A stretch of 64,000 nt of DNA from positions 64,162-128,161 of the forward strand of contig CAZXGF010000010.1 in NCBI GenBank assembly GCA_964640185.1, in the 5' to 3' direction. The notes below the pieces were generated by a model that was not told where the DNA came from, made no database searches, and worked only from the letters and a program-made list of their open reading frames with translations. Positions 1 through 16,600 of this stretch are shown in pieces. Numbering within the stretch: position 1 is the stretch's first letter; the number at the start of each line of letters is the position of its first letter. The position numbers and the translations under genes were made by a program. The DNA is from an uncultured Verrucomicrobiota bacterium. GTDB lineage: Bacteria > Auribacterota > JABMQX01.

Positions 1-37
1 TCCTTGTAACCGGCGAAATGGTGATTGTCTTTCCCAT
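1..37 (-). CDS. mvhA: [NiFe]-hydrogenase large subunit, N-terminal 12 codons only (MvhA-like); the gene continues beyond the window start
   Basis: The reverse complement of nt 1-60 reads AAGGAGGAAAGAC-ATG GGA AAG ACA ATC ACC ATT TCG CCG GTT ACA AGG (MGKTITISPVTR). It is preceded by a Shine-Dalgarno sequence and lies 11 nt downstream of the mvhG stop (TAA, rc of 49-51). The N-terminus parallels the second large subunit in this window (MSKRLTIDPITRLEGHG). Confidence 0.55.
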   Translation of the reverse strand, partial: MGKTITISPVTR

Positions 38-48
38 GTCTTTCCTCC

Positions 49-999
49 TTATCTTGCGGGCCTCTTTGGGAGCGGACGCAGCCGCTTCTGGGCGCCGACG
101 TACCGGTTCAACAAAGCCCTCCTGTCCACGACGTCTCTGACGTTCAGCCCGATGGATGAAATCGCCCCCATCATGTCCACCAGGGGATTGGCGCCTTTTC
201 GGATCGGCCCGAAGCAGCCCCGGCAGGGCATACCGCCCTGGACACACCTGGGGACTTTCACCCCGCCGTCAATCGTCCGAGCGCATCCCGAACGAGTTAC
301 CGGGCCCAAGCACAGAAAACCCTGCTCCATGAAACAGCGCGTGTTATCCCACGGTTCCCCCTGCTTGAATTCCATCGGCTCGAGGCTTCTTTTGATCTGT
401 CCGCCGGCTGCCTTTTTCTCCCTCTTCAGCGGGCAATCGTCGCAGACGCTCCTCTCGGGAAGCTCGAACGGTTTTCCCTCCAACAGGCAGGTGAGCGCCT
501 CGGCGACGAGGTCTGGGTTGGTGGGGCATCCGGGGATGTAGACATCAACGTTGACCACTTCATCCACGGCATACACGCGGTCAAGAAGCGGCGGCAGATT
601 CTCCGACGGCGTATCCGCGGAGTCGGTGGTCTTGGAGCCTCTGTAAACTTTGTCGTAAAGCTCTTCGAGCGTCCACATGTTTGCCATGGCGGGAATGCCA
701 CCGAAACACGCGCATGAACCCAGGGCTATGAGGGTCTTAGTTTTTTTCCTCATCTCCTCTGTGATGTGCTTTTCCTCCTCGTTTCGGACGCCTCCGCTGA
801 TGAGGCCGATGTCCGCTTCCGGAATCTCCAACTCGGTGCCATCGCCCGTCTGTCCGAAATACTTGTGGTCCATCAGGACAGGCATGTGCACGAACTCAAG
901 CTCCGGCAGAAGGTCGAGGAGCTTGTCCCCGATGTCGAGGATCGTCACCTCGCACCCTCCACAGATGTTGAGCCATTCTTCGGCGACTTTCACTGGCAT
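49..999 (-). CDS. mvhG: [NiFe]-hydrogenase small subunit, group 3c MvhG-like (F420-non-reducing type)
   Basis: 316-aa ORF. It has the N-terminal CGGCE and proximal/medial/distal FeS Cys ligands (GSCACFGG, GCP, Cys-rich C-terminus). It is about 40% identical by eye to the second copy at 25376-26368, and sits directly upstream of the large-subunit start. Confidence 0.85.
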   Translation of the reverse strand: MPVKVAEEWLNICGGCEVTILDIGDKLLDLLPELEFVHMPVLMDHKYFGQTGDGTELEIPEADIGLISGGVRNEEEKHITEEMRKKTKTLIALGSCACFGGIPAMANMWTLEELYDKVYRGSKTTDSADTPSENLPPLLDRVYAVDEVVNVDVYIPGCPTNPDLVAEALTCLLEGKPFELPERSVCDDCPLKREKKAAGGQIKRSLEPMEFKQGEPWDNTRCFMEQGFLCLGPVTRSGCARTIDGGVKVPRCVQGGMPCRGCFGPIRKGANPLVDMMGAISSIGLNVRDVVDRRALLNRYVGAQKRLRPLPKRPAR

Positions 1000-1114
1000 T
1001 CTGCACCTCCTCAGGTTGTATGAACGATTTGAGGACAGGATTCGGAAAGCGTGTTCTGTCCTGTTGTCGTGTCAGAATAAATGAACCCAGCAGCGATCGA
1101 AAACCTCCTCCTGC

Positions 1115-1324
1115 TCAAGGCGGCGCCTCTCCCTCCAGAACGATTTCCTTCACCACCCGCCTTGTGTAAAGCAGGTACTTGCCTTCCTGCTCGAAGAGTT
1201 GAACCTGGAAATCATTTTCTTCGTACTCACTCTTCTTTTTCTTCGCCTCCTCCTCTGTCTCATAGATGGCGCCGTCCCACATATATTTGTCCTTGTCCAC
1301 GTACTTGGCCAGCTCAGCTTCCAT
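1115..1324 (-). CDS. small acidic hypothetical protein (69 aa, Glu/Lys-rich) between mvhD and mvhG
   Basis: The ORF fills the mvhD-mvhG gap exactly with tight spacing. It has no recognisable domain and its coding status is uncertain. Confidence 0.35.
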   Translation of the reverse strand: MEAELAKYVDKDKYMWDGAIYETEEEAKKKKSEYEENDFQVQLFEQEGKYLLYTRRVVKEIVLEGEAPP

Positions 1325-1336
1325 AGATTCTCCCCC

Positions 1337-1753
1337 TTATGCCCGATAGGGACTCGGGCCTACCGATTTGATTTGCTCGACCATTTCCGTAGCCACCTGG
1401 GCGAACCTTGGTCCCTCCGAGGCGGAGACCCATTCCAGCCTGAACCTCTCCGGCTCCAGCCCGAAATCTTCGAGCATTAGTTCGATGGCTTCCGCTCTCT
1501 TTTCCGCCTTGAGGTTGCCGTCAATGTAGTGGCAGTCTCCCGGATGGCAGCCGAGGACCAGAACGCCATCCGTGCCTTTGGTCAAGGCATTGATAATCAG
1601 GTTGGGGTGAACCATCCCCGAACACATCACCCTGATAATCCGAATGTTCGGCGGATACTGAAGCCTCGATGTCCCCGCCAGGTCCGCCCCAGCGTACGAA
1701 CACCAGTTACAGCAGAAAGCGATAATGATCGGTTCAAACTCGTCGTTTGCCAT
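1337..1753 (-). CDS. mvhD: methyl-viologen-reducing hydrogenase delta subunit (MvhD, [2Fe-2S])
   Basis: 138 aa with the conserved MvhD Cys pattern (FCCNWCSY...MCSG...GCHPGDCHY). It is about 50% identical to the second copy at 22433-22852. Confidence 0.85.
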   Translation of the reverse strand: MANDEFEPIIIAFCCNWCSYAGADLAGTSRLQYPPNIRIIRVMCSGMVHPNLIINALTKGTDGVLVLGCHPGDCHYIDGNLKAEKRAEAIELMLEDFGLEPERFRLEWVSASEGPRFAQVATEMVEQIKSVGPSPYRA

Positions 1754-1760
1754 AATCGGC

Positions 1761-4700
1761 TCACTCCATCAGCGCCGCCTCGGCCATGGCCCCGATTTGC
1801 TCCAGCTTGAAGTTCCGGACGAAGATGCCCTCCTTGGGGCATGTGGCCTGGCAGACTCCACATCCCTTACATGCCGAAGCATCTCGCTCGACCGTCTTCT
1901 TTATCGCGCCGTCGCGCATGTACTCGATCAGTGTCAGGGCATTGTAAGGGCATGGGTCAATGCAATATGCGCAGCCGTCGCAATTGGCGTCAACGACCTC
2001 GGATATGGTGCCCTCCAGCTCGATTTCATCTTTGGACAGGATGGTTGCTGCCCGGGCCGCAGCACCCTCGGCCTGGCAGATGCTCTCGCTCAGCTCCTTC
2101 GGCGAATGAGCGAGCCCGCACAGGAAAATCCCGTCAGTAGCGAAATCGAGCGGCCTCAGCTTCATGTGCGCCTCGAGGAAAAACTTGTCTCTATTCAGGG
2201 GCAACTTCAATATTTTTGCGATCTCTTCGGCGTCCTCCCGTGGAACGATTGCCGGCGCCAGAATCAGCAGGTCCGCGGCGAGCTCCAGATTGGCGTTCAG
2301 GATAGGGTCGAATACGCGAACGGTCAACCTGTCTTCGTCCCTGGAAACCTCCACGCCGGGGGCGTGGTCATCGGGGTGACGTATGAACTTGACGCCCGCT
2401 TCTCTCGCCTGGGTGTAATACATCTCTCGGAAGCCGTAAGTTCTCATGTCTCTGTGTAGGACGTAAACGTTGGCGGTCGGACGCTGCCGTTTCAGTTCCA
2501 GAGCGTTCTTGACCGCCTGCTGACAGCAGATTCGGCTGCAATAAGGGCGTTCTTCGTCCCGCGACCCCACACACTGAATCATCACGACCGTCCCCGCGTC
2601 CACTTCCCCGGAGGAGAGCTTCTCCTCCAGCTCCAACTGCGTGAGCACCCGGGGGTCCTCGCCGTGGAAATAGCCCGTTTCCGGCAGAGGACGCGCGCCA
2701 ATGGCGACGATAATAATTCCATGCTCCACTTGCTTTTCTTCGCCGTCTTGCTGAAAAGTCGTGGTGAAGCTGCCCACGGAACCTTCTATGGCGGTTATGT
2801 GTGATGACGTGAAGGAGTTGATGAGAGGGTGATTCGTTACTCTCTCGACCAGGTCAGCGAGGATTTGCCGGGGGTCTTCCCCTTCCGGCAGGTAGCGGAC
2901 TCTCCGGAAGTTTCCCCCGAGCTCCTCATCTTTTTCCAGTAGATGCACGTCGAATCCCTGCTCCGCGAGATTAAGCGCTGCGGTCATGCCGCTGATACCG
3001 CCGCCGATGACCAGAGCCGCCTGGTTGACCAGCACGGTAAGTTTCTGCAGCGGCTCGATGAGGGCGGCCTTCGCTACGGCCATTCTTACTAGCGCTTTTG
3101 CTTTCTTGGTGGCTTTCTCCGGCTCGTGCCTGTGCACCCAGGAGCACTGGTCGCGGATGTTGGCCATCTCGAAGAGGTATTCGTTCAGTCCAGCCTCGCG
3201 GATTGTGTTGCGGAACAAGGGCTCGTGCGTGCGAGGTGTGCAGGAGGCCACAAGGACGCGATTGAGGTGGTGTTCCTTGATCATCTCCTTGATTCTCTGC
3301 TGCGTATCGTTGGAGCAGGTATACAGGTTGTCCTCGGCGTGGACAACGTTCGGCAGTCCCTTTGCATACTCGACGACGCTCGGCACGTCAACCACGGCCG
3401 CAATGTTCGTCCCGCAATGGCACACGAAAATGCCGATGCGTGGTTCCTGGCCGCTGACGTCAATTTCCGGAGGGTACTCCTTTTTCACGATTAAGGAGCC
3501 CCTCGCCTCAGAGAGCAGGGCCATGGCGTGCGCCGCGGCGCCGCTGGCCTGGGCGACGGTTTCGGGAATGTCCTTCGGCTCCGTGAAGGGACCGGACACG
3601 AAAATGCCTTCACTGTCAACGCTTGTCGGGCAAGAGCGCGCCGTTTTGCAGAATCCGAACTCGTTCAACTCCAGCCCGAACTTCTTCGCAAGTTCCTCAG
3701 CCCCCTTGGGCGGCTTGACGCCGGTTGAGAGAACAACCATGTCGTATTCCTCGAGATGCGTCTTGCCTTCCTCGGTTACGTAGCGCACCTCGATGTTCTT
3801 CGTATCGGAAATCTCCCTCAGGGCTGACGGTCGGCACTTGATATACCTCACGCCCGCCTCCTGAGCCCGAGCGTAATAATCGTCGTAACCTTTCCCGAAA
3901 GCTCTTAGGTCAATATAGTAGATATCGCACGCCAGTCCGGGAGAATGCTCCATGGCGATGATCGCCTCCTTGGTGGCGTACATGCAGCAGATAGAAGAGC
4001 AGAAAGAGCATCCCTCATCAGCCTGCCGCGAACCGAAGCACTGTAGGAAGGCGACCCTCTTTGGCGGCTTGTGATCCGATGGACGAAGCATCTCGCCCAG
4101 ATAAGGCCCCGTCGCGCTCAGGAGGCGCTCGAACTCGAGGGCCGTAAGCACATTGGGGGAATAGGAGTAGCCGTATTCGGGCTTGAGGTCGGGATCGAAT
4201 CGTTCGTACCCTGGCGAGAGAATGACCGCTCCGACATCCACCTTCTCTTCCGTTTCCTTCTGTTCGTAGTTAATGGCACCGGCTTCACAGGACTCTTTGC
4301 ATATCTGACATACCTCTCCGCCTCGGAGCATGTGGGCGCAGTGTTCCCTATCAATCAGCGCGCGGTTCGGGACAGCCTGAGGATAGGGAATGTAAATGGC
4401 GGGCCGGGCGATCAACTCCTCGTTGTATTCGTCGAGAATGGGCCTGGGCTCTCTGGTGGCCACCTCCGAGAGGTTAATTCTCCCCGTAGGACAAATGAAG
4501 GCGCACGCTCCGCAGACCTGGCAGACATCCGTGGGCGCCCCGAAGGGAGGTTTGACCTCTCGTTTGGAGCCGCGGTTCACGAAGCTTACAGCAGCCGCGC
4601 CCATTCTCTCCTCACACATTCGCACGCAGCGGCCGCAAAGCATACAGTCCTCGTCCTTCTTCTTGAACCTCGTCTCTTTGACGCCGCATTCTTCGGCCAG

Positions 4701-5027
4701 CTTTTGTATTTCCTCGGCATCCGGGCATCTCGCGAGGAGAAGTTCAATCATTATTTTTCGCGCCCTGAGGACCCTGTCGGTATCGGTGCTGACGACCATG
4801 CCGTCTTTGGCAGGGTACGTGCACGATGCGCGGACTGCCGAACGATTCCCCTCTGAAATCTCCACCAGGCAGACCCTGCACGAGCCGTACGGCTTCAAAG
4901 CCTTGTGGTAGCAAAGAGTGGGTATTTTGATGCCAGCCTTTTGAGCAGCCTCGAGGATGGTGTTTCCCTCTTCCACTTCAATTTGTTGTCCGTCAATAGT
5001 CAGGCTTATCACGCCAATACCTTTCAA
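1761..5027 (-). CDS. hdrA: giant HdrA-like flavoprotein (1088 aa): N-terminal NuoG/FdhA-type 2Fe-2S plus 4Fe-4S domains, a partial HdrA-like unit, then a complete HdrA unit
   Basis: N-term CYHKALKPYGSCRVC (2Fe-2S) and several CxxCxxCxxxCP motifs. One HdrA core lacks its N-terminus (FLQCFGSRQADEGCSFCSSICCMYA...IYYIDLRAFGKGYDDY). A full HdrA follows: IGIFVCHCGTNIAAVVD, FAD motif VIGGGISGMTAALNLAEQG, VGSRDEERPYCSRICCQQA, and a C-terminal ferredoxin domain. Confidence 0.8.
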   Translation of the reverse strand: MKGIGVISLTIDGQQIEVEEGNTILEAAQKAGIKIPTLCYHKALKPYGSCRVCLVEISEGNRSAVRASCTYPAKDGMVVSTDTDRVLRARKIMIELLLARCPDAEEIQKLAEECGVKETRFKKKDEDCMLCGRCVRMCEERMGAAAVSFVNRGSKREVKPPFGAPTDVCQVCGACAFICPTGRINLSEVATREPRPILDEYNEELIARPAIYIPYPQAVPNRALIDREHCAHMLRGGEVCQICKESCEAGAINYEQKETEEKVDVGAVILSPGYERFDPDLKPEYGYSYSPNVLTALEFERLLSATGPYLGEMLRPSDHKPPKRVAFLQCFGSRQADEGCSFCSSICCMYATKEAIIAMEHSPGLACDIYYIDLRAFGKGYDDYYARAQEAGVRYIKCRPSALREISDTKNIEVRYVTEEGKTHLEEYDMVVLSTGVKPPKGAEELAKKFGLELNEFGFCKTARSCPTSVDSEGIFVSGPFTEPKDIPETVAQASGAAAHAMALLSEARGSLIVKKEYPPEIDVSGQEPRIGIFVCHCGTNIAAVVDVPSVVEYAKGLPNVVHAEDNLYTCSNDTQQRIKEMIKEHHLNRVLVASCTPRTHEPLFRNTIREAGLNEYLFEMANIRDQCSWVHRHEPEKATKKAKALVRMAVAKAALIEPLQKLTVLVNQAALVIGGGISGMTAALNLAEQGFDVHLLEKDEELGGNFRRVRYLPEGEDPRQILADLVERVTNHPLINSFTSSHITAIEGSVGSFTTTFQQDGEEKQVEHGIIIVAIGARPLPETGYFHGEDPRVLTQLELEEKLSSGEVDAGTVVMIQCVGSRDEERPYCSRICCQQAVKNALELKRQRPTANVYVLHRDMRTYGFREMYYTQAREAGVKFIRHPDDHAPGVEVSRDEDRLTVRVFDPILNANLELAADLLILAPAIVPREDAEEIAKILKLPLNRDKFFLEAHMKLRPLDFATDGIFLCGLAHSPKELSESICQAEGAAARAATILSKDEIELEGTISEVVDANCDGCAYCIDPCPYNALTLIEYMRDGAIKKTVERDASACKGCGVCQATCPKEGIFVRNFKLEQIGAMAEAALME

Positions 5028-5039
5028 CCTTGGACCTTC

Positions 5040-5615
5040 TTACTCCATCTCTTTACTCAAAGCGCCCCCGCCTTCAATTTCAGCCGTGTCCAGTAGATAT
5101 CTTTTTTCTCCCCTGCGGTACGCATACGTGAAGCGAATTCCGGGGTGGCCCGCAATTAGTGCCTCCAGCGTCTGGGCCATGTCCCCCAGCGGCTTGATGT
5201 CTATATGATTTGTCTTGAATGTAGCCCTCACTACCGTCCCCCGCCGGGCCTCGGACGTAATCTCGAAATCTCCTTCGCACTCTTTAGCCGCCTGGGAGAG
5301 AAGCGATAAACCGAGGCCCACTTTTCCTCCTTCTCTCGTGGTAAAGAAGGGGCCGGTGGCCTTCCTCACAGTCTGCTCATCCATCCCTTTTCCGTCATCT
5401 TCGATTTCGATAGTTAAAAGTTTCCTTTTCTCGTCATCCGTGACTCGAATGTCCACCTTGCTCGCCCCTGCGGCCACTGCATTTTCGGCTATGTCCAAAA
5501 CGTGCAAAGAAAGGTCTTCCACTATTCCTCGAAGAAAACTCCTCTTCCTTCTCGGCCCAGGAGGGCTTTTTTTATTTCCTGCGACTCCATTGCTTCGGCA
5601 AGAAAGCCGGTCCAC
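5040..5615 (-). CDS. GHKL-type ATPase domain protein (anti-sigma-factor/Ser-kinase-like)
   Basis: HATPase_c-like motifs (LHVLDIAENAV, IEIEDDGKGMD, GLGLSL). The annotated GTG start overlaps the PHP gene by about 90 nt, so the true start may be a downstream GTG. Confidence 0.6.
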   Translation of the reverse strand: MDRLSCRSNGVAGNKKSPPGPRRKRSFLRGIVEDLSLHVLDIAENAVAAGASKVDIRVTDDEKRKLLTIEIEDDGKGMDEQTVRKATGPFFTTREGGKVGLGLSLLSQAAKECEGDFEITSEARRGTVVRATFKTNHIDIKPLGDMAQTLEALIAGHPGIRFTYAYRRGEKRYLLDTAEIEGGGALSKEME

Positions 5616-6265
5616 CGCTTCCCAATATCTTCGGGGTAGTGAGCGTCCGAGAAAGTCACAAGGGGAAAAGCCTGCACCGCCGGGAATGCGGACCTGGCCT
5701 CGGCGAGTGTGCTCCTCGGAGAGACCTCCAGAGCGTCCAGCTCCAGACCTTCGGGGATGAACCCTAACTGCCCTATAATGCCGAAACTCTCGCGATCCAC
5801 ATGCGACGCGATGGCAATCCCGGAAAGCGAGTGAATCTCCTGGACAATGCTGTCGAGGGGCAAAGTAGTTGCACCTACCAAAAGTCTCTCGTTTATCTCC
5901 ACGACCTCATCGTTCTCGTTGACAACCACTTGCTCGCCGAAGGCCCTTTCATCATTCACGCCGGGGAGACTGTCATACACTCTTTCTTGCAGCTTCAATA
6001 GCTTTTCCTCCCGATCAAACAGCGCCAGCACATGTACCTCCTCTTCGGACGTTATTTCCATTCCTCCCAGCACTGCTATTCTGGTTTTTTCGGCGGCTTT
6101 CCTCACTGCCGCCGCGTTTTCCGCCGAGTTGTGGTCACATATCGCGATGACGTCCAACCCCCTTTTCTGGGCTTCTTCGATGATAACTCCGGGGACCATG
6201 GCCAAGCTTCCACACGGCGAAAGGCACGTGTGAATGTGCAAGTCCGCCCGGAACCCTCTCAGCAT
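5522..6265 (-). CDS. PHP (polymerase and histidinol phosphatase) domain protein
   Basis: N-terminal ADLHIHTCLSPCG and later CDHNS and DAHYPEDIG metal-binding His/Asp motifs typical of the PHP family. Confidence 0.75.
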   Translation of the reverse strand: MLRGFRADLHIHTCLSPCGSLAMVPGVIIEEAQKRGLDVIAICDHNSAENAAAVRKAAEKTRIAVLGGMEITSEEEVHVLALFDREEKLLKLQERVYDSLPGVNDERAFGEQVVVNENDEVVEINERLLVGATTLPLDSIVQEIHSLSGIAIASHVDRESFGIIGQLGFIPEGLELDALEVSPRSTLAEARSAFPAVQAFPLVTFSDAHYPEDIGKRWTGFLAEAMESQEIKKALLGREGRGVFFEE

Positions 6266-6609
6266 GAGGCCGTTCCGCGAAGTCCAAGCTGATACAGCCG
6301 GCCCACAACCTCGAAGGTTGGCAGGCTCGTCACCAGAATCGGTACTCCCTCTTTTTCAGCCCTGCTCAGGGTTTCTGAATCCGGCTCTCTTCCGTTGACG
6401 ATAACTACTCCCGCGAGCTCTTTGACAACCGCAACAGCTACGATATTCTGATGAAGTTGAACCGTCACCCAGAGACAGTCCTTACCCGCATGGGCCATCA
6501 CGTCGCTCAACAGGTCGCTGGCGTAACCGCCGCTCACCTCCCGGGAGAGGTTCCCGGCCGCCGATCTCACCTCCATTTTCAGCTCGCGGACTGCCTCCTC
6601 TAATTTCAT
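6259..6609 (-). CDS. DRTGG domain protein
   Basis: 116 aa with a DRTGG-like core (GGYASDLLSDVMAHAGKDCLWVTVQ...VVIVNGR...GVPILVTSLPTFEVVGRL). Confidence 0.65.
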   Translation of the reverse strand: MKLEEAVRELKMEVRSAAGNLSREVSGGYASDLLSDVMAHAGKDCLWVTVQLHQNIVAVAVVKELAGVVIVNGREPDSETLSRAEKEGVPILVTSLPTFEVVGRLYQLGLRGTASC

Positions 6610-6621
6610 CTGCGCCCTTTC

Positions 6622-7539
6622 CTAATCCGGGAAATGGAATGTGGCCTGCAGGTCTGTCCCTTTCCCGACCTTCGATTTCAATACCATCTCGTCCGCACTT
6701 TTCTGAATGTTGCAAAGTCCCATCCCTGCGCCGAAGCCCAGTTCCCGCACCCATTCCGGCGCCGTGGAAAAGCCCGGCTGCATCGCTTGTTCTATGTCCT
6801 CAATCCCGGGGCCCTTGTCTTTCGCCTGAATCTGGATGTATTCCGGGTAAATGTGGGAGACCATTTCCCCCTTTTCTGCGAACACCACGATGTTCATCTC
6901 TGCTTCGTACGTCGCAATGGCAACTCTGCGGACCACCTGCGGGGCAAACCCGAGCCGAGTGAGCGTTTTCTTCAGCGTACTCGCAGAAATCCCTGCCCGG
7001 TCGAAATCTCCTCCCAGCACGTTGTATCGCAGGGTTATGACTGTTTTATCAGCGAGGATGTCCTCGAAAATGTGGCTGGCCCGGTAGCGATGAATCTCTT
7101 CCTCCCGGTAGTCAATCTCTAATTTGTTCAACAGTCCTCTGATGATGTCCCCTTTGCTCAAAATGCCAGCCAACTGTCCGGTCTTGCGGTCAACCACCGG
7201 GAATCGCCCAAAGCCGTAGCGCTCGAATTTATTGATGGCATGAACCACCGGCTCGTCGGCATAGAGAACCTCCAGCTTCCTGGTCATCTTCTTTTCCACC
7301 GAGCAATCCATCTCCCCGCCAGCCAGGCACTTAATGAAATCTTCAATGCTGATAATTCCCACCAAGTTCTCGCCATCAACAACGGGAGTTCCGGAAATCT
7401 TGTTCACACGGAAGAGTTCTCTCAGCTCACCGACAGGGCAATCAGGCCGGGCTGTTATCACTTCCCTGGTCATCACTTCTCCCACTTTCAGCTCGTATGT
7501 CAGCTCCTGAACCCTGCCGATTCCCCGGTCCTTGCCCAT
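6622..7539 (-). CDS. CBS-pair + GHKL ATPase regulatory protein
   Basis: Two CBS-like segments (VITARPDCPV...GTPVVD and ...GRFPVVD...GILSKGDII) followed by a histidine-kinase-like ATPase domain (GPGIEDIEQA, GFGAGMGL). Confidence 0.7.
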   Translation of the reverse strand: MGKDRGIGRVQELTYELKVGEVMTREVITARPDCPVGELRELFRVNKISGTPVVDGENLVGIISIEDFIKCLAGGEMDCSVEKKMTRKLEVLYADEPVVHAINKFERYGFGRFPVVDRKTGQLAGILSKGDIIRGLLNKLEIDYREEEIHRYRASHIFEDILADKTVITLRYNVLGGDFDRAGISASTLKKTLTRLGFAPQVVRRVAIATYEAEMNIVVFAEKGEMVSHIYPEYIQIQAKDKGPGIEDIEQAMQPGFSTAPEWVRELGFGAGMGLCNIQKSADEMVLKSKVGKGTDLQATFHFPD

Positions 7540-7561
7540 TTCCGCCTCTTCATCAGGAACA

Positions 7562-7915
7562 TCAGTTCACTTCGGAACATCCCGGCAAACCGTTTTTGTA
7601 AAGCCGCCCGCACGTCTCGAACATGGGCAACTGGGTCAACAACAGAGGTATGCCCTTGTTCTCTGCCAACCGCACAGTCTCCTCACCGGGTCTTTTTCCT
7701 CGAACAAAGCAGATAGCTTTGATATCAACCATCTCAGCCGTGCGAATAACCTGGGGATTGGTTAGTCCCGTTATGAGGAGCGCCCCTTGCTTGACGAAGG
7801 CGAGCACGTCGCTCATCAGGTCCGCCCCGCAAGCCATGCCGACCTCTGTATCCAAACCATTGCCGCCGGAGATGACCTCCGCGTCCAGAATTCGCTCCAC
7901 TTCGTCGAGTTTCAT
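7562..7915 (-). CDS. DRTGG domain protein (second copy)
   Basis: The ORF track gives 7562..8089. I trimmed the start to the internal Met (MKLDEVERIL) because the upstream part overlaps the end of the NuoF-like gene. DRTGG-like core: GADLMSDVLAFVKQGALLITGLTNPQVIRTAEMVDI...GIPLLLTQLPMFETCGRL. Confidence 0.6.
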   Translation of the reverse strand: MKLDEVERILDAEVISGGNGLDTEVGMACGADLMSDVLAFVKQGALLITGLTNPQVIRTAEMVDIKAICFVRGKRPGEETVRLAENKGIPLLLTQLPMFETCGRLYKNGLPGCSEVN

Positions 7916-7925
7916 GAAAGACTCC

Positions 7926-9719
7926 TCACCTTCTGGTGACGGCGCCGAACTTGCAGACCTCGTAGCACAATCCGCACTTGATACATTTTGCCGGGTCAAT
8001 AGTCTGCGGCTCCTTCTTTTCGCCGCTGATGGCCTCCGAGGGGCATTTCTTGACGCAGAGCATGCATCCGGTGCACTTCTCGGGGTCAATTAGGTACTCG
8101 ATCAAGCCTTTGCAGACCCCCGCAGGGCACCTCTTTTCCTTTATGTGTGCCTCATACTCGCTTCTGAAGTATTTCAGCGTGCTCAGTACCGGATTGGGAA
8201 GAGTCTGACCCAGTCCGCACAGCGACGCATCCTTAATGGCATTGCCCAATTCCTCAAGGAGCTCGAGGTCTCCCTCTCTGCCTTCCCCCTCGCAGATGCG
8301 GGTCAGGATCTCCAGGAGAGCCTCCGAGCCCTCGCGGCAAGCTGTGCATTTCCCGCACGACTCGGCATTCGTGAACCGTATGAAATAGCGAGCAACGTCC
8401 ACCACACATGTTTCTTCGTCCATTACGATCATTCCCCCAGAGCCCATAATAGAGCCTGCTTCCGTCAGGCGCTCGTAATCCACAGGAAGGTCTATTAGCT
8501 CTGCCGGAATGCACCCGCCCGAGGGGCCGCCGGTCTGCACCGCTTTGAACTTTTTCCCGTTCGGGATACCGCCCCCGATATCGAAGACGATCTCCCTTAA
8601 GGGGATCCCCATCGGCACCTCAACCAGCCCCGTATTGTTAATCTTACCCACGAGAGAAAAAACCTTCGTCCCCTTACTTTTCTCCGTACCTATGCTCGAA
8701 AACCAGTCGGCTCCTCGCAAAATGATCGTCGGTACAGTTGCCCAGGTCTCCACATTGTTGATGTTCGTGGGCTTCCCCCATAACCCACATTCGACAGGGT
8801 AGGGAGGTCTTTGCCTCGGCTCCGGCGGTCGGCCCTCGATGGACGCCAGCAGCGCGGTCTCCTCCCCGCACACGAAGGCTCCTGCCCCCACGTGAACCTC
8901 GACGTCAAAACTAAAATCGGTGTCGAATATGTTTTTGCCCAGAAGTCCGTAATCTCTCGCCTGCTCGATGGCGATTTTGATCCTTTCAAGGGCCAGGGGA
9001 TATTCACTTCTGATGTAGATAAACCCTTCCTCGGCGCCGATGGCCCTGGCGCCAATCAGCATCCCCTCCAGGACCGACTGCGGGTCTGCCTCCGCTATGC
9101 TCCTGTCCATGAACGCCCCCGGGTCCCCCTCATCGCCGTTGCATACAACATACTTCGGTTGGCCCTGAGCCTTCCGGCATAGGTCCCACTTGAGCCCGGT
9201 GGGGAACCCTGCCCCTCCTCTGCCCCGCAGCCCGGAAGCTTTGATCGTCTCGACAATCTCCTCCGCGGTCATCTCACTCAGCGCTTTTGCCAGAGCTTTG
9301 TACCCGTCCCGGGCGATATACTCGTCTATCTTTTCGGGATCAATTAGACCCCTGTTTCTCAGGGCCACGAGTGTCTGGCGCGCGAAAAAGCCGATATCCA
9401 TCATCCTGGGAATCGGCTTGTCCTCTGGAGGCGGAGAGTACATCAAGCGCTCAACGGGACGCCCTTTCAAGAAATGCTCTTCTACGAGGTGCGGAATATC
9501 CTCCACGGTGAGCTGTTGGTAGAAGATTCCTTCCGGCATGACTGTCATGACAGGGCCCACCGCACAAAAGCCGTTGCACCCGGTCATGACCACTGCAATT
9601 TCGTCTTCAAGACCTTGTTTCGCCAGTTCTTTATCGAGCGCTTCCTTGACCTGGAACGACCTGTTCGAAACACAGGCCGTCCCCGCGCAAAGCATCAAGT
9701 GCGTTCTATATCTCTTCAA
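7926..9719 (-). CDS. NuoF/HndC/HydB-like NAD(P)H-binding FMN flavoprotein with an N-terminal thioredoxin-like 2Fe-2S domain and a C-terminal 2x[4Fe-4S] ferredoxin domain
   Basis: NAD(P)H site GLRGRGGAGFPTGLKW, FMN site YVVCNGDEGDPGAFMDR, 4Fe-4S site ESCGKCTACREG, and C-terminal CxxCxxCxxxCP x2 motifs. Confidence 0.85.
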   Translation of the reverse strand: MKRYRTHLMLCAGTACVSNRSFQVKEALDKELAKQGLEDEIAVVMTGCNGFCAVGPVMTVMPEGIFYQQLTVEDIPHLVEEHFLKGRPVERLMYSPPPEDKPIPRMMDIGFFARQTLVALRNRGLIDPEKIDEYIARDGYKALAKALSEMTAEEIVETIKASGLRGRGGAGFPTGLKWDLCRKAQGQPKYVVCNGDEGDPGAFMDRSIAEADPQSVLEGMLIGARAIGAEEGFIYIRSEYPLALERIKIAIEQARDYGLLGKNIFDTDFSFDVEVHVGAGAFVCGEETALLASIEGRPPEPRQRPPYPVECGLWGKPTNINNVETWATVPTIILRGADWFSSIGTEKSKGTKVFSLVGKINNTGLVEVPMGIPLREIVFDIGGGIPNGKKFKAVQTGGPSGGCIPAELIDLPVDYERLTEAGSIMGSGGMIVMDEETCVVDVARYFIRFTNAESCGKCTACREGSEALLEILTRICEGEGREGDLELLEELGNAIKDASLCGLGQTLPNPVLSTLKYFRSEYEAHIKEKRCPAGVCKGLIEYLIDPEKCTGCMLCVKKCPSEAISGEKKEPQTIDPAKCIKCGLCYEVCKFGAVTRR

Positions 9720-9746
9720 TCCCTTTTTCCGATTCCCTAATGGTTT

Positions 9747-10130
9747 CTAAGACTGCCGTTCACTTCCTCTGGCCAATGCGTACTCCGTCACGGCTTTTCC
9801 GCCCAAGACGTGCTCATCGAGAATCCTGCGGGTCTTGTCCGGAGTCAGGTCCACGTACTTGACAGGCGCCTCTCCCTTCAATTCGACTGTCGCCATGGGT
9901 TCGCGACTGCATAGCCCTGCACATCCGCTACTGGTCAAGATAACGTCCTTGATATCCTTATTCTCGAACTCGTCCAGAAGCGTGTTCATGATTTCTCTTG
10001 CTCCTGCGGCGATACCACAGGTCCCCATGTGGACGGTAATTTTGGCTCTCCCCGCCCCCTGCCGGAGTAGAGTAGCCCTCCTTACCTTTTCGGCAATCCT
10101 GTCGAGGTCTTCGATCTTTATCTTGGACAT
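9747..10130 (-). CDS. NuoE/HndA-like thioredoxin-fold [2Fe-2S] ferredoxin
   Basis: 127 aa with the Cys pattern HMGTCGIAAG ... SSGCAGLC typical of thioredoxin-like 2Fe-2S ferredoxins. Confidence 0.75.
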   Translation of the reverse strand: MSKIKIEDLDRIAEKVRRATLLRQGAGRAKITVHMGTCGIAAGAREIMNTLLDEFENKDIKDVILTSSGCAGLCSREPMATVELKGEAPVKYVDLTPDKTRRILDEHVLGGKAVTEYALARGSERQS

Positions 10131-10141
10131 CCCTTGTTCCC

Positions 10142-11101
10142 CTACCTGTACTTTTCAACGATCTTCAGCACTTCTGCTTGGGTCAGCTTGCCATAGAGGT
10201 CCTCTCCGATGGTCATAACCGGCGCCAGGCCGCAACACCCGATGCAGTTGACAGTTTCCAGGGTAAAAGCCATGTCCTCCGATGTCTCACCGGTTGCTAT
10301 GCCAAGTGCTCGCTCGAGCGTCTCAACAATGAGGGGAGCGCCTTTAACATGGCAGGTCGTCCCCATGCAAACGGTGACGATGTGTTTCCCTCTCGGCTTG
10401 AGGCTGAAGGAGGCGTAAAAAGTAGCTATCCGGTAAATCAGGCTTAGAGGGATATCAAGCTGGCGAGCTAAATAGCGCAAGACATCTTCGGGAAGATAGT
10501 TGTAGCTTGAGTTGATGCTCTGCAAGATGGACACTATTGGTCCCTTTTCGCCACGGTGTTCATGCAGAATCTCGTCCACCCTCACCCGGTCCTCCGCTGC
10601 GAGCTCAACCTTCTTTTTCTCCTCTGGCTTCAGCACATATATTTGGTTCCTTACAGGGCAGATGCCCATACACTCCCCGCAGCCGGTGCACTTGTCCTCC
10701 TCAACGAAGCGGGGACGCTTTTTGAGGGTTGCCTGAAAGCGTCCGGGACTTCCCTCAAGCCTCTCCACATGCGCCAGGGTAATCACCTCGATATCCTTAT
10801 GCCTCCCGATTTCCACGAGACGGGGGGCCATAGTGCACATTGCGCAGTCATTCGTCGGGAAGGTTTTGTCAAGCTGGGACATCACCCCCCCAATGCTGGG
10901 TTTGTTATCCACCAGATAAACCTTGAATCCTGATTCGGCGAGGTCGAGGGCGGCTTGCATACCACCGATCCCCCCGCCCACGACAAGAACGGCGCCAACT
11001 TTGCCGTTTCTTCGTTGACGGTTATCGCTCATTAAATGTTGGTCCTTTGCAAAACCTCTACCCGGCAATCGCCGGCGCCTATCTTCGCTCAGCCCTTTCA
11101 A
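10142..11101 (-). CDS. fusion protein: an HdrA-like N-terminal FAD-binding fragment joined to a NuoE-like [2Fe-2S] domain
   Basis: N-terminal half: VLVVGGGIGGMQAALDLAESG...DCAMCTMAPRL...CTGCGECMGICP (HdrA-type dinucleotide fold plus a 4Fe-4S site). C-terminal half: CMGTTCHVKG...VNCIGCCGLAPV (NuoE signature). The start overlaps the upstream gene stop in an ATGA arrangement. Confidence 0.7.
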   Translation of the reverse strand: MKGLSEDRRRRLPGRGFAKDQHLMSDNRQRRNGKVGAVLVVGGGIGGMQAALDLAESGFKVYLVDNKPSIGGVMSQLDKTFPTNDCAMCTMAPRLVEIGRHKDIEVITLAHVERLEGSPGRFQATLKKRPRFVEEDKCTGCGECMGICPVRNQIYVLKPEEKKKVELAAEDRVRVDEILHEHRGEKGPIVSILQSINSSYNYLPEDVLRYLARQLDIPLSLIYRIATFYASFSLKPRGKHIVTVCMGTTCHVKGAPLIVETLERALGIATGETSEDMAFTLETVNCIGCCGLAPVMTIGEDLYGKLTQAEVLKIVEKYR

Positions 11102-11556
11102 GCCTCAGGGCCGCCGCCAGGCAGGTGCATTTCTGTCAAAAAGCGATAGTACTCGCACTCCTCGCAAGGCCCGGGACACAGAAACAGGCTGGGATCGGCC
11201 TGATCCCTAAGAACGTAGCACTCTTTGGCCTTCGTTTTGAAAACCAGGCAGTCTTCGCACCGCCTCTCCTCCTTGCCGGGGTGAGTCTTGTTGCGGACGT
11301 GGAACTCCCAGCAGTACACAAAGTCCTTGACCGCAAGCTCTGGAAGACCCAATATCACCCTCGCCCTCTCGCCCATCGGAAGCCCTCGCCTCTCCATGAA
11401 CTCCACAATGTCCTGCGGGAGAATACGCCATTGACCCTGGGGAGTCAGCCTGTGGCCGGGCAGATGCCCCCTCTCAAGCCACCTCTTGACGGTGTCGTGC
11501 GAGCACTTGCAGATAGTCGCCACGTCCCCTGTAGTAAGAATGTCCTTGTACTTCAC
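11098..11556 (-). CDS. HTH (excisionase/MerR-like, HTH_17) DNA-binding protein with a C-terminal Cys-rich domain; putative operon regulator
   Basis: N-term TTGDVATICKCSHDTVKRWLERG. The C-terminus carries 8 Cys (CWEF...CEDC...C...CPGPCEECEY). It is the first gene of the minus-strand operon and is translationally coupled (ATGA) to the next gene. Confidence 0.6.
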   Translation of the reverse strand: MKYKDILTTGDVATICKCSHDTVKRWLERGHLPGHRLTPQGQWRILPQDIVEFMERRGLPMGERARVILGLPELAVKDFVYCWEFHVRNKTHPGKEERRCEDCLVFKTKAKECYVLRDQADPSLFLCPGPCEECEYYRFLTEMHLPGGGPEA

Positions 11557-11559
11557 GGT

Positions 11560-12300
11560 CAGCTATTCACCCGGAGGCTGTGACTGAATATATTTCGCAT
11601 ACATTGTCAGCGCTTATGGGCCAATCATACACCCCTTGCGTTATTAGCGTAGTTTTACACTCCCAAACCGGCCTGTCAAGAAAAACTTTTCCCCAAAGTC
11701 TAAATAAGGCAGACTCAGTCGCAGCCAAAACCGGCCCGAAAACGCCATGTGTCACATTTCCGAAGCATTGAAGATCAGAGATGCCTGAGACGCAGTATTC
11801 CGGGCGGCACGTCGGAAGAGCTCAAACTGCCTGGGCGAAACCTCACACCTTCACCCTGCATCCAAACCCAAAGGCAGCTCGCGCGGAACAATAAAGCTGC
11901 GATACAACCACGGCTTGATGGCGTCGGCCTTGAGGCAGCGCCAGACCGTGCTCCTACTGACGGAGGCCGTGATGTCACGCTGGACGGCAGGTGTTCCCTG
12001 GGGCAGCTCCCAGGCCACCGCCTTCACTTCCACCACGATGTGGGTGAAAAGAATCGCTGTCGCGGACACCGCTCCTCCTCGGCGGTGGGGATAACGGGCA
12101 AAAGACGCTTGTCTCGATTTGTAAGACGCAGAGTTTTCACAACACCTTCCCATATCAGGGATTGCGATGAGGTCGGCACGCATTCCGCCGTTTAGCTCGA
12201 CTTCCGCAGACGATGTCGCTCCCCTCAATCGCTAATCCCGGAGCGGGCGTCCCCAAGAAGGCCTGTCCGAAACGTCCCAACAGGAGCAGCAACTTGAGAA
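11560..12300 (-). pseudogene. IS630-family transposase N-terminal remnant (frameshifted and truncated)
   Basis: The minus-strand frames read PHRRGGAVSATAILFTHIVVEVKAVAWELPQG...DITASVSRSTVWRCLKADAIKPWLYRSFIVPRE. This resembles the conserved IS630 N-terminal region (...PRPGAPRKITDAQVEAVVVKTLE...ATHWSTRSMA..SQSAVSRIWRAFGLKPH...FKLSTDP). There is no intact ORF, and the remnant runs into the HTH regulator gene. Confidence 0.45.
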
Positions 12301-12307
12301 AGATGGG

Positions 12308-12598
12308 TTGCGTCCTGTTCTGACAGCGGCGAGAGAGGTACTGGCACAGGCGTCCAGAAGAGGCTTCTGCGAGCCTTGCAGGGAAAGCTGGGATATCCGC
12401 ATTTGTTCTCGTGGTTTCGGATGGACGCCCTCGGGACAGCGGAGACCAGAGCACCACATTCATCGGCCGCCGGTAATGGAGGACCGCCTGCCTCTGAGTT
12501 CGGGGGGTAAAGGCGCTGGACATGTAGTGCTTTTTGATACGCCACGTTCGGCTTCGAAACCGGCAGGTTCGGTTTTTCGCCACGTCATGCCCGCATGA
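12308..12598 (+). pseudogene. IS630-family transposase C-terminal fragment (opposite orientation)
   Basis: The plus-strand ORF ends ...HVVLFDTPRSASKPAGSVF, resembling the conserved IS630 C-terminal HFTPTSASWLNQVERWF block. The rest is degraded. Confidence 0.35.
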
Positions 12599-13058
12599 GG
12601 GTGTCCTCCCAGTCTCCCTGAGGGACGCGGTCGGTTCACCAGAAGGGTAACTGAAGTTGCGATGGACCTGCATAGCTTGCAGAAGCGTAGTTTTTCGCAG
12701 ATTTTTGTTGACAAGTAGGGAAGGAGAATGAGAAAGTACGCTAACAACGCGAATTTGTATGAAATGGGCATACGTGTACACAACACATATCCAATCTCGT
12801 GTTCCGAAAACGAAGCCGTCAAATCAAAGCAAATTCTGATGGAGCCTATGTTGCTCACAGTCGCACCTGCTTCCACGCGGGTGTCCGGGATAAGTCATCA
12901 CGCGGCCACAGGCGCGCCTCCAGGGAAGATTTGTGTCCCCCATCCCAGTTTGATGTGTGACATCCCGCAAAACGGGGGACGGATCCGTGGAGGGTCCACG
13001 GCGCTGCCCTAAGCAGGTTTTTTCAGTCAACCGGGATAGACACAGGGAGAAGGAGAAA

Positions 13059-14015
13059 ATGGCCAACATGAAGGCAGCAATAATAGGAGCCGGGAATGTC
13101 GGTGCGTCCACGGCGCTGAAACTCGCCGAGCTGAATATCGCTGATATCGTAATGACCGACCTCGTCGAGGGCATGCCTCAGGGGAAGGCGTTAGACATGA
13201 TGGAGTCGGCGCCGCTGTCGGGGATAGACGTCAGTATAACCGGCACGAACGATTACAAAGAGATTGCCGGCAGCGATATTGTGGTGATAACGGCTGGCGT
13301 CCCTCGCAAGCCGGGGATGTCGCGCGATGACCTGCTCAAGATAAACGCGCATATCATTGGTGAGGTGGTTGACGATGTGCTCCGGCACGCGCCGGATGCC
13401 ATTATAATAATGGTTACAAACCCGCTGGATGTGATGACCTACCTCGCCTACCAAAGAAGCGGCTTCGACAAGAGGCGCGTTCTGGGGATGGCTGGTGTGC
13501 TCGATTCGGTGAGGTTTCGCTGTTTCATAGCTATGGAACTTGGTGTGTCGGTGAAAGAGGTCTCAGCTATGGTTCTTGGAGGGCACGGAGATTCCATGGT
13601 CCCCCTACCAGATTACTCGACGGTTTCGGGGATTCCGATTGTGGAGCTTATCCCGAAGGAAGCCATTGACCGCATGATCTCCCGCACGCGGAAAGCCGGC
13701 GGTGAGATCGTAGCTTTGCTCAAGACAGGAAGCGCGTACTACGCCCCGGCGGCGGCCGTAGCCGCGATGGCGGAGAGCATTCTCCTGGATCAAAAGCAGC
13801 TCCTCCCATGCTGCACCAAGCTCGACGGAGAATACGGATTGTCCCACGTCTTCGTCGGCGTGCCGGTGATTTTGGGGAAGGAAGGGGTCGAGAAAGTTGT
13901 CGAGGTACCCCTTTCCCCGGAAGACTCTGAGAAGCTGAAGCAATCGGCCGAACACGTGAAGTCCACAATGGAGGATTTGCGTAAGCTTTCTGATACGGAC
14001 AGAGCCGAAGGCTGA
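13059..14015 (+). CDS. mdh: malate dehydrogenase (LDH-like family)
   Basis: Start trimmed to ATG at 13059, preceded by the GAGAAGGAGAAA RBS. It has the Rossmann motif AIIGAGNVGASTA, the catalytic region and substrate-binding ITAGVPRKPGMSRDDLL. Confidence 0.9.
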   Translation: MANMKAAIIGAGNVGASTALKLAELNIADIVMTDLVEGMPQGKALDMMESAPLSGIDVSITGTNDYKEIAGSDIVVITAGVPRKPGMSRDDLLKINAHIIGEVVDDVLRHAPDAIIIMVTNPLDVMTYLAYQRSGFDKRRVLGMAGVLDSVRFRCFIAMELGVSVKEVSAMVLGGHGDSMVPLPDYSTVSGIPIVELIPKEAIDRMISRTRKAGGEIVALLKTGSAYYAPAAAVAAMAESILLDQKQLLPCCTKLDGEYGLSHVFVGVPVILGKEGVEKVVEVPLSPEDSEKLKQSAEHVKSTMEDLRKLSDTDRAEG

Positions 14016-14076
14016 ATTGTTGGCTATGAGTTCTGAGGGATATCGCCATACGATGCCAATGTGAGGGAGTGCTCAG

Positions 14077-16590: not shown

Positions 16591-16600
16591 CGAGTAAACG

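Follow-up and report, generated by a model that had tools for sequence, protein, structure and literature searches.

What kind of enzyme is encoded by an operon in which an Mvh-type [NiFe] hydrogenase, an HdrA-like flavoprotein, a NuoE/NuoF-like module and a set of sensory genes stand together? We asked this for a locus at the start of a 64,000-nucleotide stretch of DNA (the window) from an uncultured Verrucomicrobiota bacterium (contig CAZXGF010000010.1, positions 64,162 to 128,161). The locus forms the 5' portion (11.5 kb) of a single long operon, whose part inside the window lies on the minus strand (11556 to 36) and holds 13 complete genes and the first 12 codons of a fourteenth, mvhA (Table 1). 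We hold with moderate confidence that the operon encodes a soluble complex in which an Mvh/Vhu-type [NiFe] hydrogenase, a BamE-like tandem HdrA and a HydBC/Bfu-type module work together as proposed below. Such a complex probably couples H2, NAD(H) and ferredoxin via two electron-splitting sites in series. A complex linked to these three substrates had already been suggested in a first-pass annotation of the same DNA, and this is a reasonable reading, as an Mvh-type hydrogenase, an HdrA-like protein and a NuoE/NuoF module with the marks of a bifurcating HydB are joined here. The further suggestion that the complex might be trifurcating is supported by none of our results.

The evidence that carries this reading is a pair of reciprocal gene fusions. 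The largest protein of the locus (1088 aa) had been described as a giant HdrA, which is not simply so, as it consists of an N-terminal BfuA domain followed by a split tandem HdrA. Residues 1-190 form a short NuoG/BfuA domain with one [2Fe-2S] and two CxxCxxCxxxC motifs, and residues 7-187 match the BfuA chain 9mqx_A (158 bits). In HdrA unit 1, residues 194-452 match residues 257-510 of HdrA (5odc_A); this unit is a TrxR-like FAD domain with an inserted ferredoxin domain and is devoid of the N-terminal Rossmann piece. HdrA unit 2 (527-1088) comprises an N-terminal cluster domain, an FAD domain and a C-terminal ferredoxin domain, with no inserted ferredoxin domain (matches of 527-758 to 2-234 and of 900-1080 to 468-644 of 5odc_A).

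The piece absent from unit 1 is the one fused to NuoE, so that the first FAD domain is split in a complementary manner between two proteins. Residues 37-153 of the NuoE fusion match HdrA 142-258 (PDB 8rvv/5odc), a range that complements the one covered by unit 1 (142-258 and 257-510). This fragment, HdrA', is the N-terminal FAD-binding Rossmann piece and carries GGGIGG, the CxxC in TFPTNDCAMC and one CxxCxxCxxxCP motif. An unsplit tandem HdrA (HdrA2) encoded further along the same operon allowed a direct comparison: fragment residues 37-151 are 58% identical to HdrA2 residues 4-118, HdrA2 residues 92-1001 are 48% identical to residues 156-1083 of the 1088-aa protein (over 939 residues), and the fragment and the 1088-aa protein together are colinear with HdrA2.

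The sequence features of an HdrA-type bifurcating flavoprotein of the tandem, BamE-like kind were all found, namely FAD motif, CC motif, lysine, CxxC and inserted ferredoxin domain. The GxGxxG motif reads GGGIGG on the fragment and GGGISG in unit 2. The FAD-proximal lysines K353 (in CCMYATK, from residue 347) and K840 (in CCQQAVK, from residue 834) are invariant in 15 sequences, and this motif lysine corresponds, by our own count, to Lys409 of the solved HdrA. The CxxC (DCAMC) occurs only on the NuoE-fused fragment and the inserted ferredoxin domain only in unit 1. With a BfuA N terminus on HdrA and an HdrA piece on NuoE, the Bfu and HdrA modules are predicted to belong in one complex whatever their transcription, and the reciprocal fusions show the modules to be covalently interlocked. 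The first-pass annotation had made the NuoEF-HdrA association depend on joint transcription, and the fusions make the link independent of it.

The Bfu module itself is of a well-described kind. BfuB residues 3-595 align without gaps to residues 3-595 of HydB from the NiFe-Hyd enzyme of Acetomicrobium mobile (7t2r_B, 888 bits), with the cysteine motifs in register, including those of the N-terminal [2Fe-2S] and the C-terminal 2x[4Fe-4S] ferredoxin domains. From the N terminus, its domains are [2Fe-2S], FMN/NAD(H), NuoF [4Fe-4S] and 2x[4Fe-4S]. Extra N- and C-terminal clusters are what separates bifurcating BfuB from non-bifurcating NuoF homologs (Schut et al. 2022, PMC9304861); by this distinction the BfuB encoded here, which carries both, is of the bifurcating type. 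Residues 174-319 of the NuoE fusion match HydC chains (132-165 bits), and the BfuC and BfuA-type subunits required for a Bfu module are both present as fusion domains. The small [2Fe-2S] ferredoxin between bfuC and bfuB is kept at the same position in related loci, with 55-82% identity. Several close relatives (L006, 4188-7238; also L002, L005, L091-L093, L096 and L104; such labels denote homologous loci that we fetched in two sets, one seeded on the HdrA fusion and one on the cassette) encode a NuoF of about 1016 aa, in which the C-terminal 2x[4Fe-4S] domain is swapped for a GltD/NfnB-like Fer4_20 plus Pyr_redox_2 pair. Its domain content suggests an NADPH-linked variant of the same complex. 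Hox enzymes carry a NuoEF-type module on a [NiFe] hydrogenase. The earlier view of NuoEF modules as partners of [FeFe] hydrogenases or formate dehydrogenases is therefore too narrow, as they are also known on [NiFe] hydrogenases (A. mobile, Hox) and together with HdrA (class II benzoyl-CoA reductase).

Only 12 codons of mvhA lie inside the window, and the full protein (480 aa) and the genes beyond it were read from two public contigs. One (L001) is identical to window positions 1-8769 over all 8769 bases, and the other (L082, a 152-kb Joint Genome Institute (JGI) contig) holds the same genes as the window locus. MvhA, which had been listed as an operon gene, is thus present. It shows the Ni-Fe-binding motifs RIEGH, CGVC and DPCLSCATH. 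The NCBIfam model VhuA scored 488 bits (below its equivalog cutoff of 800), compared to at most 171 bits for the 3b, Frh and group 1 models. A group-3 large subunit had been set beforehand as a test of the proposal, and MvhA passes it. Mvh-type large subunits in the PDB (5odc_F, 9sw2_F, 9sfi_g) matched with 410-430 bits. MvhG residues 3-289 align to 5odc_E (213 bits), whereas the match to HoxY and A. mobile HydS is confined to its N-terminal half, and members of the 90% cluster of MvhG are named F420-non-reducing or methyl viologen-reducing hydrogenase by JGI and NCBI. MvhD matched the MvhD chains of 8rvu, 9sw2 and 5odc (167-181 bits). Judged from these similarities, the hydrogenase is Mvh/Vhu-like and of the group 3c type; the large-subunit motifs and closeness and a long MvhG with adjacent MvhD are all found, and an HdrABC partner with HdrB is not. 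The first Ni-Fe motif of MvhA (around residue 60; L001 8733-10175) reads TSICGVC, a serine replacing the arginine of RxCGxC. This serine form is common to L002, L004, L006, L021, L091 and L093, and other relatives have RICGVC.

Between MvhD and MvhG, a short open reading frame (ORF), orf69, has 70 homologs with the invariant residues K13, W16, D17, G18, F39, R55, R56, V57, V58, E60 and G65. Among the loci holding orf69, 16 of 17 also have MvhG/A. Its AlphaFold2 model (pLDDT 84) has a beta-beta-alpha-beta-beta fold, and a Foldseek comparison of this model with the PDB gave no match with E < 0.001, the best being a SPOR-like small domain (E = 0.7). Neither orf69 nor the second DRTGG protein matched an NCBIfam model. 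On its conservation, we regard orf69 as a genuine conserved gene.

As read on the window and the public contigs, the operon comprises at least 21 genes over about 22 kb and extends at least 10 kb past window position 1. Nine further genes follow mvhG, mvhA being the first and the remaining eight lying at L082 12488-20951, with 4-nt overlaps separating most genes of this extension. The downstream gene set centred on HdrA2 forms a second NAD(P)H-linked module. Among the 21 operon genes read, none has an HdrB/CCG domain. This excludes a methanogen-type heterodisulfide as the acceptor, and the locus is not a heterodisulfide reductase. An AOR-family (tungsten BamB-type) domain was likewise found in none of the operon genes read. 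The locus resembles the Bam electron module devoid of the catalytic AOR-family subunit and is not a class II benzoyl-CoA reductase.

The same arrangement is found in many other organisms. Among the matches listed, the best 120 clusters at 90% identity mostly hold proteins of 1077-1098 aa that are at least 61% identical to the 1088-aa protein. Planctomycetota/Phycisphaerae, Aminicenantes, Latescibacterota and Actinobacteria are among the labels of their sources. Members of the system occur in metagenome-assembled genomes (MAGs) labelled Planctomycetota, Acidobacteriota, Aminicenantes, Cloacimonadota and Desulfobacterota. The NuoG-N-fused form was present in 22 of 80 loci from species-representative genomes, with NuoF adjacent in every case (22/22). 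In both locus sets together, 48 loci have a NuoG-N-fused protein, and an HdrA fragment lies upstream in 40 of these (30 fused to NuoE, 10 as a separate adjacent match); five were too short upstream to judge and three without the fragment are variant or non-giant BfuA forms. A synteny search for the NuoEF-HdrA-MvhDGA arrangement, which the first-pass annotation had named as a check, recovered the full order (NuoE fusion, ferredoxin, NuoF, cassette, fused HdrA, MvhD, orf69, MvhG, MvhA) in 11 loci of other organisms. These span several phyla, including MAGs labelled Phycisphaerae, Pirellulales and Thermoanaerobaculia. The core (HdrA fragment, NuoE, NuoF, fused HdrA and MvhD) also occurs without cassette or hydrogenase, for example in MAGs labelled Altiarchaeales (L010) and uncultured archaeon (L018). 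As judged from these comparisons, the locus belongs to a modular family that is widespread and can do without the hydrogenase or the cassette, and is not peculiar to its source genome. The fusions and the recurrent synteny exclude that a NuoEF operon and an Hdr-Mvh operon came to lie together by chance.

The position directly upstream of the NuoE fusion varies. A full-length QmoC-like membrane protein (HdrC-like N terminus plus multi-helix membrane domain) is encoded directly 5' of hdrA'::nuoE at L006 1735-2901 (NF038018, 193 bits). HdrC-like matches at the equivalent position in L002-L005, L026 and L095 suggest that they have this gene too; the comparison with the QmoC model covered L006. In the window, this position holds the helix-turn-helix (HTH) regulator gene. 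A QmoC-like gene upstream in many relatives hints at a quinone-linked version of the system.

Five genes between NuoF and the fused HdrA encode the sensory cassette. CBS-GHKL has thousands of homologs at 55-88% identity and is as conserved as the catalytic subunits, and its ATP-binding motifs EAEMN, DxGPG and GFGAGMG are invariant in the alignment. DRTGG protein 1 shows 50-75% identity in related loci, where the position of DRTGG protein 2 is also conserved. The 155-aa GHKL protein has no DHp/His phosphotransfer domain. For the cassette neighbourhood we used the 83 closest loci (3 genomic contexts and 80 metagenomic), seeded on CBS-GHKL at 53% identity or more. Most of those long enough to judge adjoin NuoE/ferredoxin/NuoF and the fused HdrA; in loci of this set with at least four cassette genes, NuoF was found in 30 of 49 and the fused HdrA in 25 of 49, the rest being mostly short contigs. 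Other partners are HdrCBA (L088) and an 820-aa NuoG-N::HdrA-like protein alone (L087). From these neighbours, we conclude that the cassette travels with cytoplasmic Bfu/Hdr/[NiFe] redox complexes.

The DRTGG and CBS-GHKL pair, often with a second DRTGG protein, also stands beside [NiFe] hydrogenases with no more than 25-29% identity to MvhG/MvhA (L089, L115, L118, L120, L126, L135, L138 and L149). The hydrogenase of L089 has Fer4_22 and NAD_binding_1 partners and is group 3b-like, so the sensory pair is not specific to the Mvh-linked system. The cassette had been tied to the [FeFe]-hydrogenase operons of the Thermotoga/Thermoanaerobacter type. A six-frame search of the 83 closest cassette loci for H-cluster motifs (TSCCP; ExMxCxxGCxxG), run without a positive-control sequence, gave zero hits; the tie is not reproduced in these loci and is neither confirmed nor excluded for distant homologs. 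NCBIfam gave generic domain-level matches to the cassette proteins, and no curated family names the cassette. The domains themselves suggest nucleotide sensing with ATP-dependent switching.

From the gene content, fusions, motif conservation and synteny observed here, we infer a physical complex with the hydrogenase, a direction of electron flow, the identities of acceptors and a function of the cassette; the mechanism is modelled on the solved Mvh-Hdr complex and a cryo-electron microscopy preprint on class II benzoyl-CoA reductase (bioRxiv 10.64898/2026.04.10.717634). BfuBC would catalyze reversible confurcation or bifurcation between NADH plus reduced ferredoxin and mid-potential electrons, while the hydrogenase would exchange electrons of similar potential with H2. 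Both would feed or drain an iron-sulfur wire that leads via MvhD to the bifurcating FAD of the split, CxxC-bearing HdrA unit. From there, electrons would part into a low-potential branch, running through the inserted ferredoxin domain to ferredoxin, and a higher-potential branch. The latter is probably formed here by two proteins whose genes follow hycI, one HdrC-like and one FrhB-like, and in many relatives by the QmoC-like membrane protein. The cassette most likely senses adenine nucleotides or the energy state and may tune the complex by ATP-dependent binding or by phosphorylation and dephosphorylation.

Several points weigh against this reading. The high-potential acceptor is named from candidate proteins, and a role is given to the cassette from its domains, without a curated family. 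Both HdrA units keep the lysine, which leaves the identity of the bifurcating FAD ambiguous at the level of sequence. The case for co-transcription of the locus consists of spacing and synteny. The cassette and Bfu-HdrA-MvhD genes occur together with HdrC-like, FrhB-like and HdrA2 genes and no hydrogenase in L123, L153 and L162, and in a MAG labelled Thermoanaerobaculia an insert of about 4 kb separates orf69 from mvhG (L005 13938-17947). Hydrogenase-free clusters and this insert make the hydrogenase an optional module, separable from the Bfu-HdrA part, and it could instead dock on the downstream HdrA2-MvhD2 pair. A prior listing of the system in Appel et al. 2021 (BBA 1862:148379) is also possible. 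Full-text literature searches yielded no account of the cassette or of an Mvh hydrogenase combined with a split tandem HdrA that is fused to Bfu parts.

The optional hydrogenase leads to an alternative in which two enzymes are encoded side by side, an H2-independent Bfu-HdrA-MvhD oxidoreductase and an Mvh hydrogenase (orf69, MvhG, MvhA, HycI) working with the downstream HdrC-like, FrhB-like, HdrA2 and MvhD2 proteins. The hydrogenase-free clusters and many core-only loci would fit such a division, as would the longest spacer of the locus (115 nt) directly 5' of mvhG, the L005 insert at the same junction and the fact that the second tandem HdrA has an MvhD of its own. We consider it rather improbable, since in the 11 loci with both Bfu and Mvh the mvh genes come after the fused HdrA, MvhD and orf69, solved complexes (5odc) show MvhD as the adaptor by which MvhG docks on HdrA, and the spacer contains neither a terminator nor a stable structure. 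The main rival is a simpler enzyme, which would be a plain H2:NAD+/ferredoxin bifurcating hydrogenase like NiFe-HydABCSL, with the coupling at the BfuB FMN/iron-sulfur site, HdrA and MvhD as mere wire or scaffold and no fourth substrate. BfuB does align gaplessly and with such a high score to HydB of the enzyme that catalyzes this reaction, H2, NAD+ and ferredoxin already suffice thermodynamically for bifurcation (Schut et al., PMC9304861), and the operon genes as read contain no HdrB. This explanation is unlikely in our view, as it leaves the FAD motif and lysine kept in both HdrA units, the CxxC kept on the fragment and the consistently co-encoded HdrC-like/FrhB-like or QmoC-like partners without a role, and as the core is widespread without hydrogenase; for about 900 flavoprotein residues, a pure wire role is hard to accept. 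By far the least probable is the usual label of MAG surveys, a canonical MvhADG-HdrABC hydrogen:heterodisulfide oxidoreductase. Homologs of MvhA, MvhG, MvhD and HdrA are all present and such loci are so labelled in a Cloacimonadota survey (PMC12590816), but no HdrB (CCG-domain) gene was found in the operon, HdrA is split, tandem and BfuA-fused, and the complex includes a HydBC-type module in full.

Of the systems known, class II benzoyl-CoA reductase comes closest with its electron module BamGHI-BamF-BamE. There, a HydBC-type module works in series with an MvhD-like adaptor and with BamE, a fused HdrA dimer; bifurcation in BamE is confined to the unit that bears CxxC and lysine (bioRxiv 10.64898/2026.04.10.717634). 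The confinement of CxxC and inserted ferredoxin domain to one HdrA unit matches this asymmetry. Bam(BC)2DEFGHI of Geobacter metallireducens shares with the present locus a HydBC-type NuoE/NuoF with a short NuoG-like subunit, the MvhD-like adaptor and the fused HdrA dimer of about 1000 aa. In contrast to Bam, the tandem HdrA carries the NuoG-like domain as a fusion here, the first FAD domain is divided between two proteins, of which the NuoE fusion bears the N-terminal piece, and the catalytic partner is an Mvh [NiFe] hydrogenase instead of tungsten BamBC. Also, no BamD/HdrBC-like CCG protein is encoded and a five-gene sensory cassette lies inside the operon.

The MvhAGD-HdrABC complex of hydrogenotrophic methanogens (5ODC, 9SW2) gave full-length matches to MvhA (410-421 bits), MvhG (187-213 bits) and MvhD (167-169 bits), and the HdrA domains, cluster motifs and FAD-proximal lysine are conserved. 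However, the HdrB heterodisulfide site is absent here and an NAD(H)/ferredoxin Bfu module is added, and the tandem, split and BfuA-fused HdrA differs from methanogen HdrA, a 650-aa homodimer subunit. A. mobile NiFe-HydABCSL (7T2R) likewise combines a [NiFe] hydrogenase with a Bfu core (BfuB 888 bits, BfuC 151 bits). Its small subunit is short (179 aa, compared to 316 aa for MvhG here), its BfuA is a 692-aa NuoG-like protein instead of a 190-residue domain fused to HdrA, and it has no HdrA or MvhD; the present locus is not of this type. With the Bfu family as a whole (Schut et al. 2022), the locus shares the conserved BfuBC core and the BfuA-type input domain, its short BfuA resembling that of Wor-Bfu (9mqx_A). 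Enzymes with a short BfuA are Type 2 Bfu, Bam-Bfu among them (PMC9304861). The main text and one supplementary file of that paper name no Hdr-Mvh-linked member, and the fusion of BfuA and BfuC to HdrA parts sets the locus apart from the family as described. QmoABC of sulfate reducers also pairs HdrA-like flavoproteins with an HdrC-like iron-sulfur partner; the HdrC-like protein here is soluble (166 aa), and Qmo has neither hydrogenase nor Bfu module.

Single elements of the arrangement have been reported before. For the Bfu family, partnerships with a [NiFe] hydrogenase (A. mobile) and with HdrA (Bam-Bfu) have been published (PMC9304861; PMC8880783; bioRxiv 10.64898/2026.04.10.717634), tandem HdrA fusions were noted in archaea (PMC11237513), and hybrid [FeFe]/[NiFe] complexes with NuoEFG-like subunits in Thermoplasmatota (PMC11216029). 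Apparently new here is that the Bam-type two-module unit is rebuilt by reciprocal fusions, joined to a group-3c-type hydrogenase and has a sensory cassette embedded. Serial HydBC-type and HdrA-type bifurcation has so far been demonstrated only in benzoyl-CoA reductase (the 2026 preprint), and the locus suggests that the two-module bifurcation unit is a common building block, to which an Mvh hydrogenase, a QmoC-like membrane anchor or an FrhB-like partner can be added. A tentative, bolder proposal would be an unrecognized and widespread class of hydrogenase supercomplexes, spread over many uncultured bacterial phyla and with its core in archaea. In it, two different bifurcation sites (Bfu FMN/iron-sulfur and HdrA FAD) would be hard-wired by reciprocal domain swaps, couple H2, NAD(H), ferredoxin and a fourth, exchangeable acceptor (FrhB-linked here, QmoC/quinone-linked in relatives) and be switched by an adenylate-sensing kinase/phosphoesterase cassette.

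The distinction matters for annotation. The Cloacimonadota MAG survey labels [NiFe]/Hdr loci simply MvhADG-HdrABC (PMC12590816), and L011, from a MAG of Cloacimonadota, carries the Bfu-fused form. Under that label, models assign a heterodisulfide-linked, H2-oxidizing role, which is unlikely here because HdrB is missing and an NADH/ferredoxin module is built in. Further, joint gating of the two bifurcation sites could be approached through the split FAD domain and its tether to the mobile BfuC, and the highly conserved CBS/DRTGG/GHKL/PHP cassette points to post-translational control of cytoplasmic redox complexes.

The gene inventory in Table 1 is based on an ORF listing and Pfam scans, with starts as called on the identical public contigs. 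All 13 complete genes of the gene order given in the first-pass annotation are present, with the domains named there. On the identical contigs, DRTGG protein 1 is a 117-aa gene and not a 175-aa TTG ORF, and the likely start of hdrA'::bfuC is the ATG at 11032, giving 296 aa in agreement with the gene call on JGI contigs.

Table 1. Features of the operon inside the window and in its continuation on the identical public contigs
Feature	Position	Strand	Evidence and remarks
Candidate sigma-70-like promoter, TTGACA, 16-nt spacer, TAAAAC	11652..11679	-	about 95 nt 5' of HTH gene start; read directly from sequence
HTH_17 (excisionase/MerR-like) DNA-binding protein, Cys-rich C-terminal half	11098..11556	-	Pfam HTH_17, 47.9 bits
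HdrA' fragment::BfuC (NuoE/HydC) fusion	10142..11101	-	Pfam 2Fe-2S_thioredx, 162 bits, residues 175-319
Small thioredoxin-like [2Fe-2S] ferredoxin, HydD-like, between bfuC and bfuB	9747..10130	-	Pfam PF01257, 26.6 bits
NuoF homolog, BfuB/HydB type	7926..9719	-	Pfam Complex1_51K, NADH_4Fe-4S, Fer4
DRTGG protein 1, 117 aa	7562..7915	-	Pfam DRTGG
CBS pair + GHKL (HATPase_c_2, SpoIIAB/RsbW-like)	6622..7539	-	Pfam CBS 98 bits, HATPase_c_2; NCBIfam spIIAB 49 bits
DRTGG protein 2, 116 aa	6259..6609	-	Pfam DRTGG; 7-nt overlap with PHP gene
PHP-family metal-dependent phosphoesterase	5522..6265	-	Pfam PHP, PHP_C; HxH motif at residues 10-12
Stand-alone GHKL ATPase domain protein, 155 aa	5040..5507	-	Pfam HATPase_c, 61.9 bits; 155-aa gene call on identical contigs
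BfuA-N::split tandem HdrA, 1088 aa	1761..5027	-	PDB matches to BfuA 9mqx_A and HdrA 5odc_A
MvhD [2Fe-2S] adaptor	1337..1753	-	Pfam FlpD, 190 bits
Conserved 69-aa protein (orf69)	1115..1324	-	70 homologs, 11 invariant residues
MvhG-type [NiFe]-hydrogenase small subunit, 316 aa	49..999	-	full-length match to MvhG 5odc_E
mvhA, first 12 codons (MGKTITISPVTR)	1..36	-	rest of 480-aa protein beyond window
HycI-type maturation protease	after mvhA		
HdrC-like 2x[4Fe-4S] protein, 166 aa	after hycI		soluble, without membrane domain
FrhB-like protein, 378 aa	after HdrC-like gene		FrhB model 195 bits
Unsplit tandem HdrA (HdrA2), 1002 aa	after FrhB-like gene		
Second MvhD (MvhD2)	after HdrA2		
Iron-sulfur protein, 334 aa	after MvhD2		
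ShyB/AsrA-like protein	after 334-aa iron-sulfur protein		
NAD_binding_1/DHODB-type flavoprotein, start only	last operon gene read		

The junctions are mostly tight, as had been noted, with gaps of 65, 11, 27, 10, 22, 12, -7, 14, 12, 7, 12, 115 and 12 nt from 5' to 3' (11 of 13 junctions at 27 nt or less or overlapping); of the several overlaps claimed, a single one of 7 nt lies in the window. A promoter and terminator scan of positions 1-13000 gave counts at or below the shuffle expectation and no terminator-like signal above chance, which makes it uninformative for or against an operon. Folding of the 115-nt orf69-mvhG spacer indicated no structured element (z = 0.39), and Rfam and tRNA scans of the whole window gave no match. 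The HTH_17 protein is a putative operon regulator; L091 and L093, the closest relatives, both have a homolog with 63% identity in this place. The TTGACA/TAAAAC pair upstream of its gene was not flagged by the consensus promoter scan and is a candidate promoter by its letters only. Beyond it, a gene-poor stretch of 1.4 kb (11557-12956) separates the HTH gene from a divergent malate dehydrogenase gene. This stretch contains no ORF with a Pfam match and no Rfam family, and its repeats amount to one chance-level 12-mer pair. A transposase remnant is unsupported there, as the ORFs have no Pfam match.

A second Mvh locus lies at 20.4-28.3 kb of the window. It had been described as paralogous and distinct at 40-50% identity, which holds for MvhD (46.5%) and not for MvhG (37%), which falls below that range; MvhA is 46% identical. 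The surrounding plus-strand genes (12957-29445) begin with malate dehydrogenase, sucC and sucD. They include the only CCG protein in the window, an HdrB-like protein (16601-17506, plus strand) that belongs to this other cluster, and subunits of a 2-oxoacid:ferredoxin oxidoreductase (17647-20214, plus strand). Next come HdrA (661 aa), MvhD, an iron-sulfur protein (236 aa), a fumarate-reductase-type flavoprotein (555 aa), MvhG, MvhA, HycI and an AAA_26+DRTGG protein. By its gene content, the region looks like an HdrA/Mvh-coupled fumarate-reductase-like module within a reductive tricarboxylic acid cycle-type gene set. The G+C content is 0.46-0.53 at 16-30 kb, compared to 0.55-0.58 on either side.

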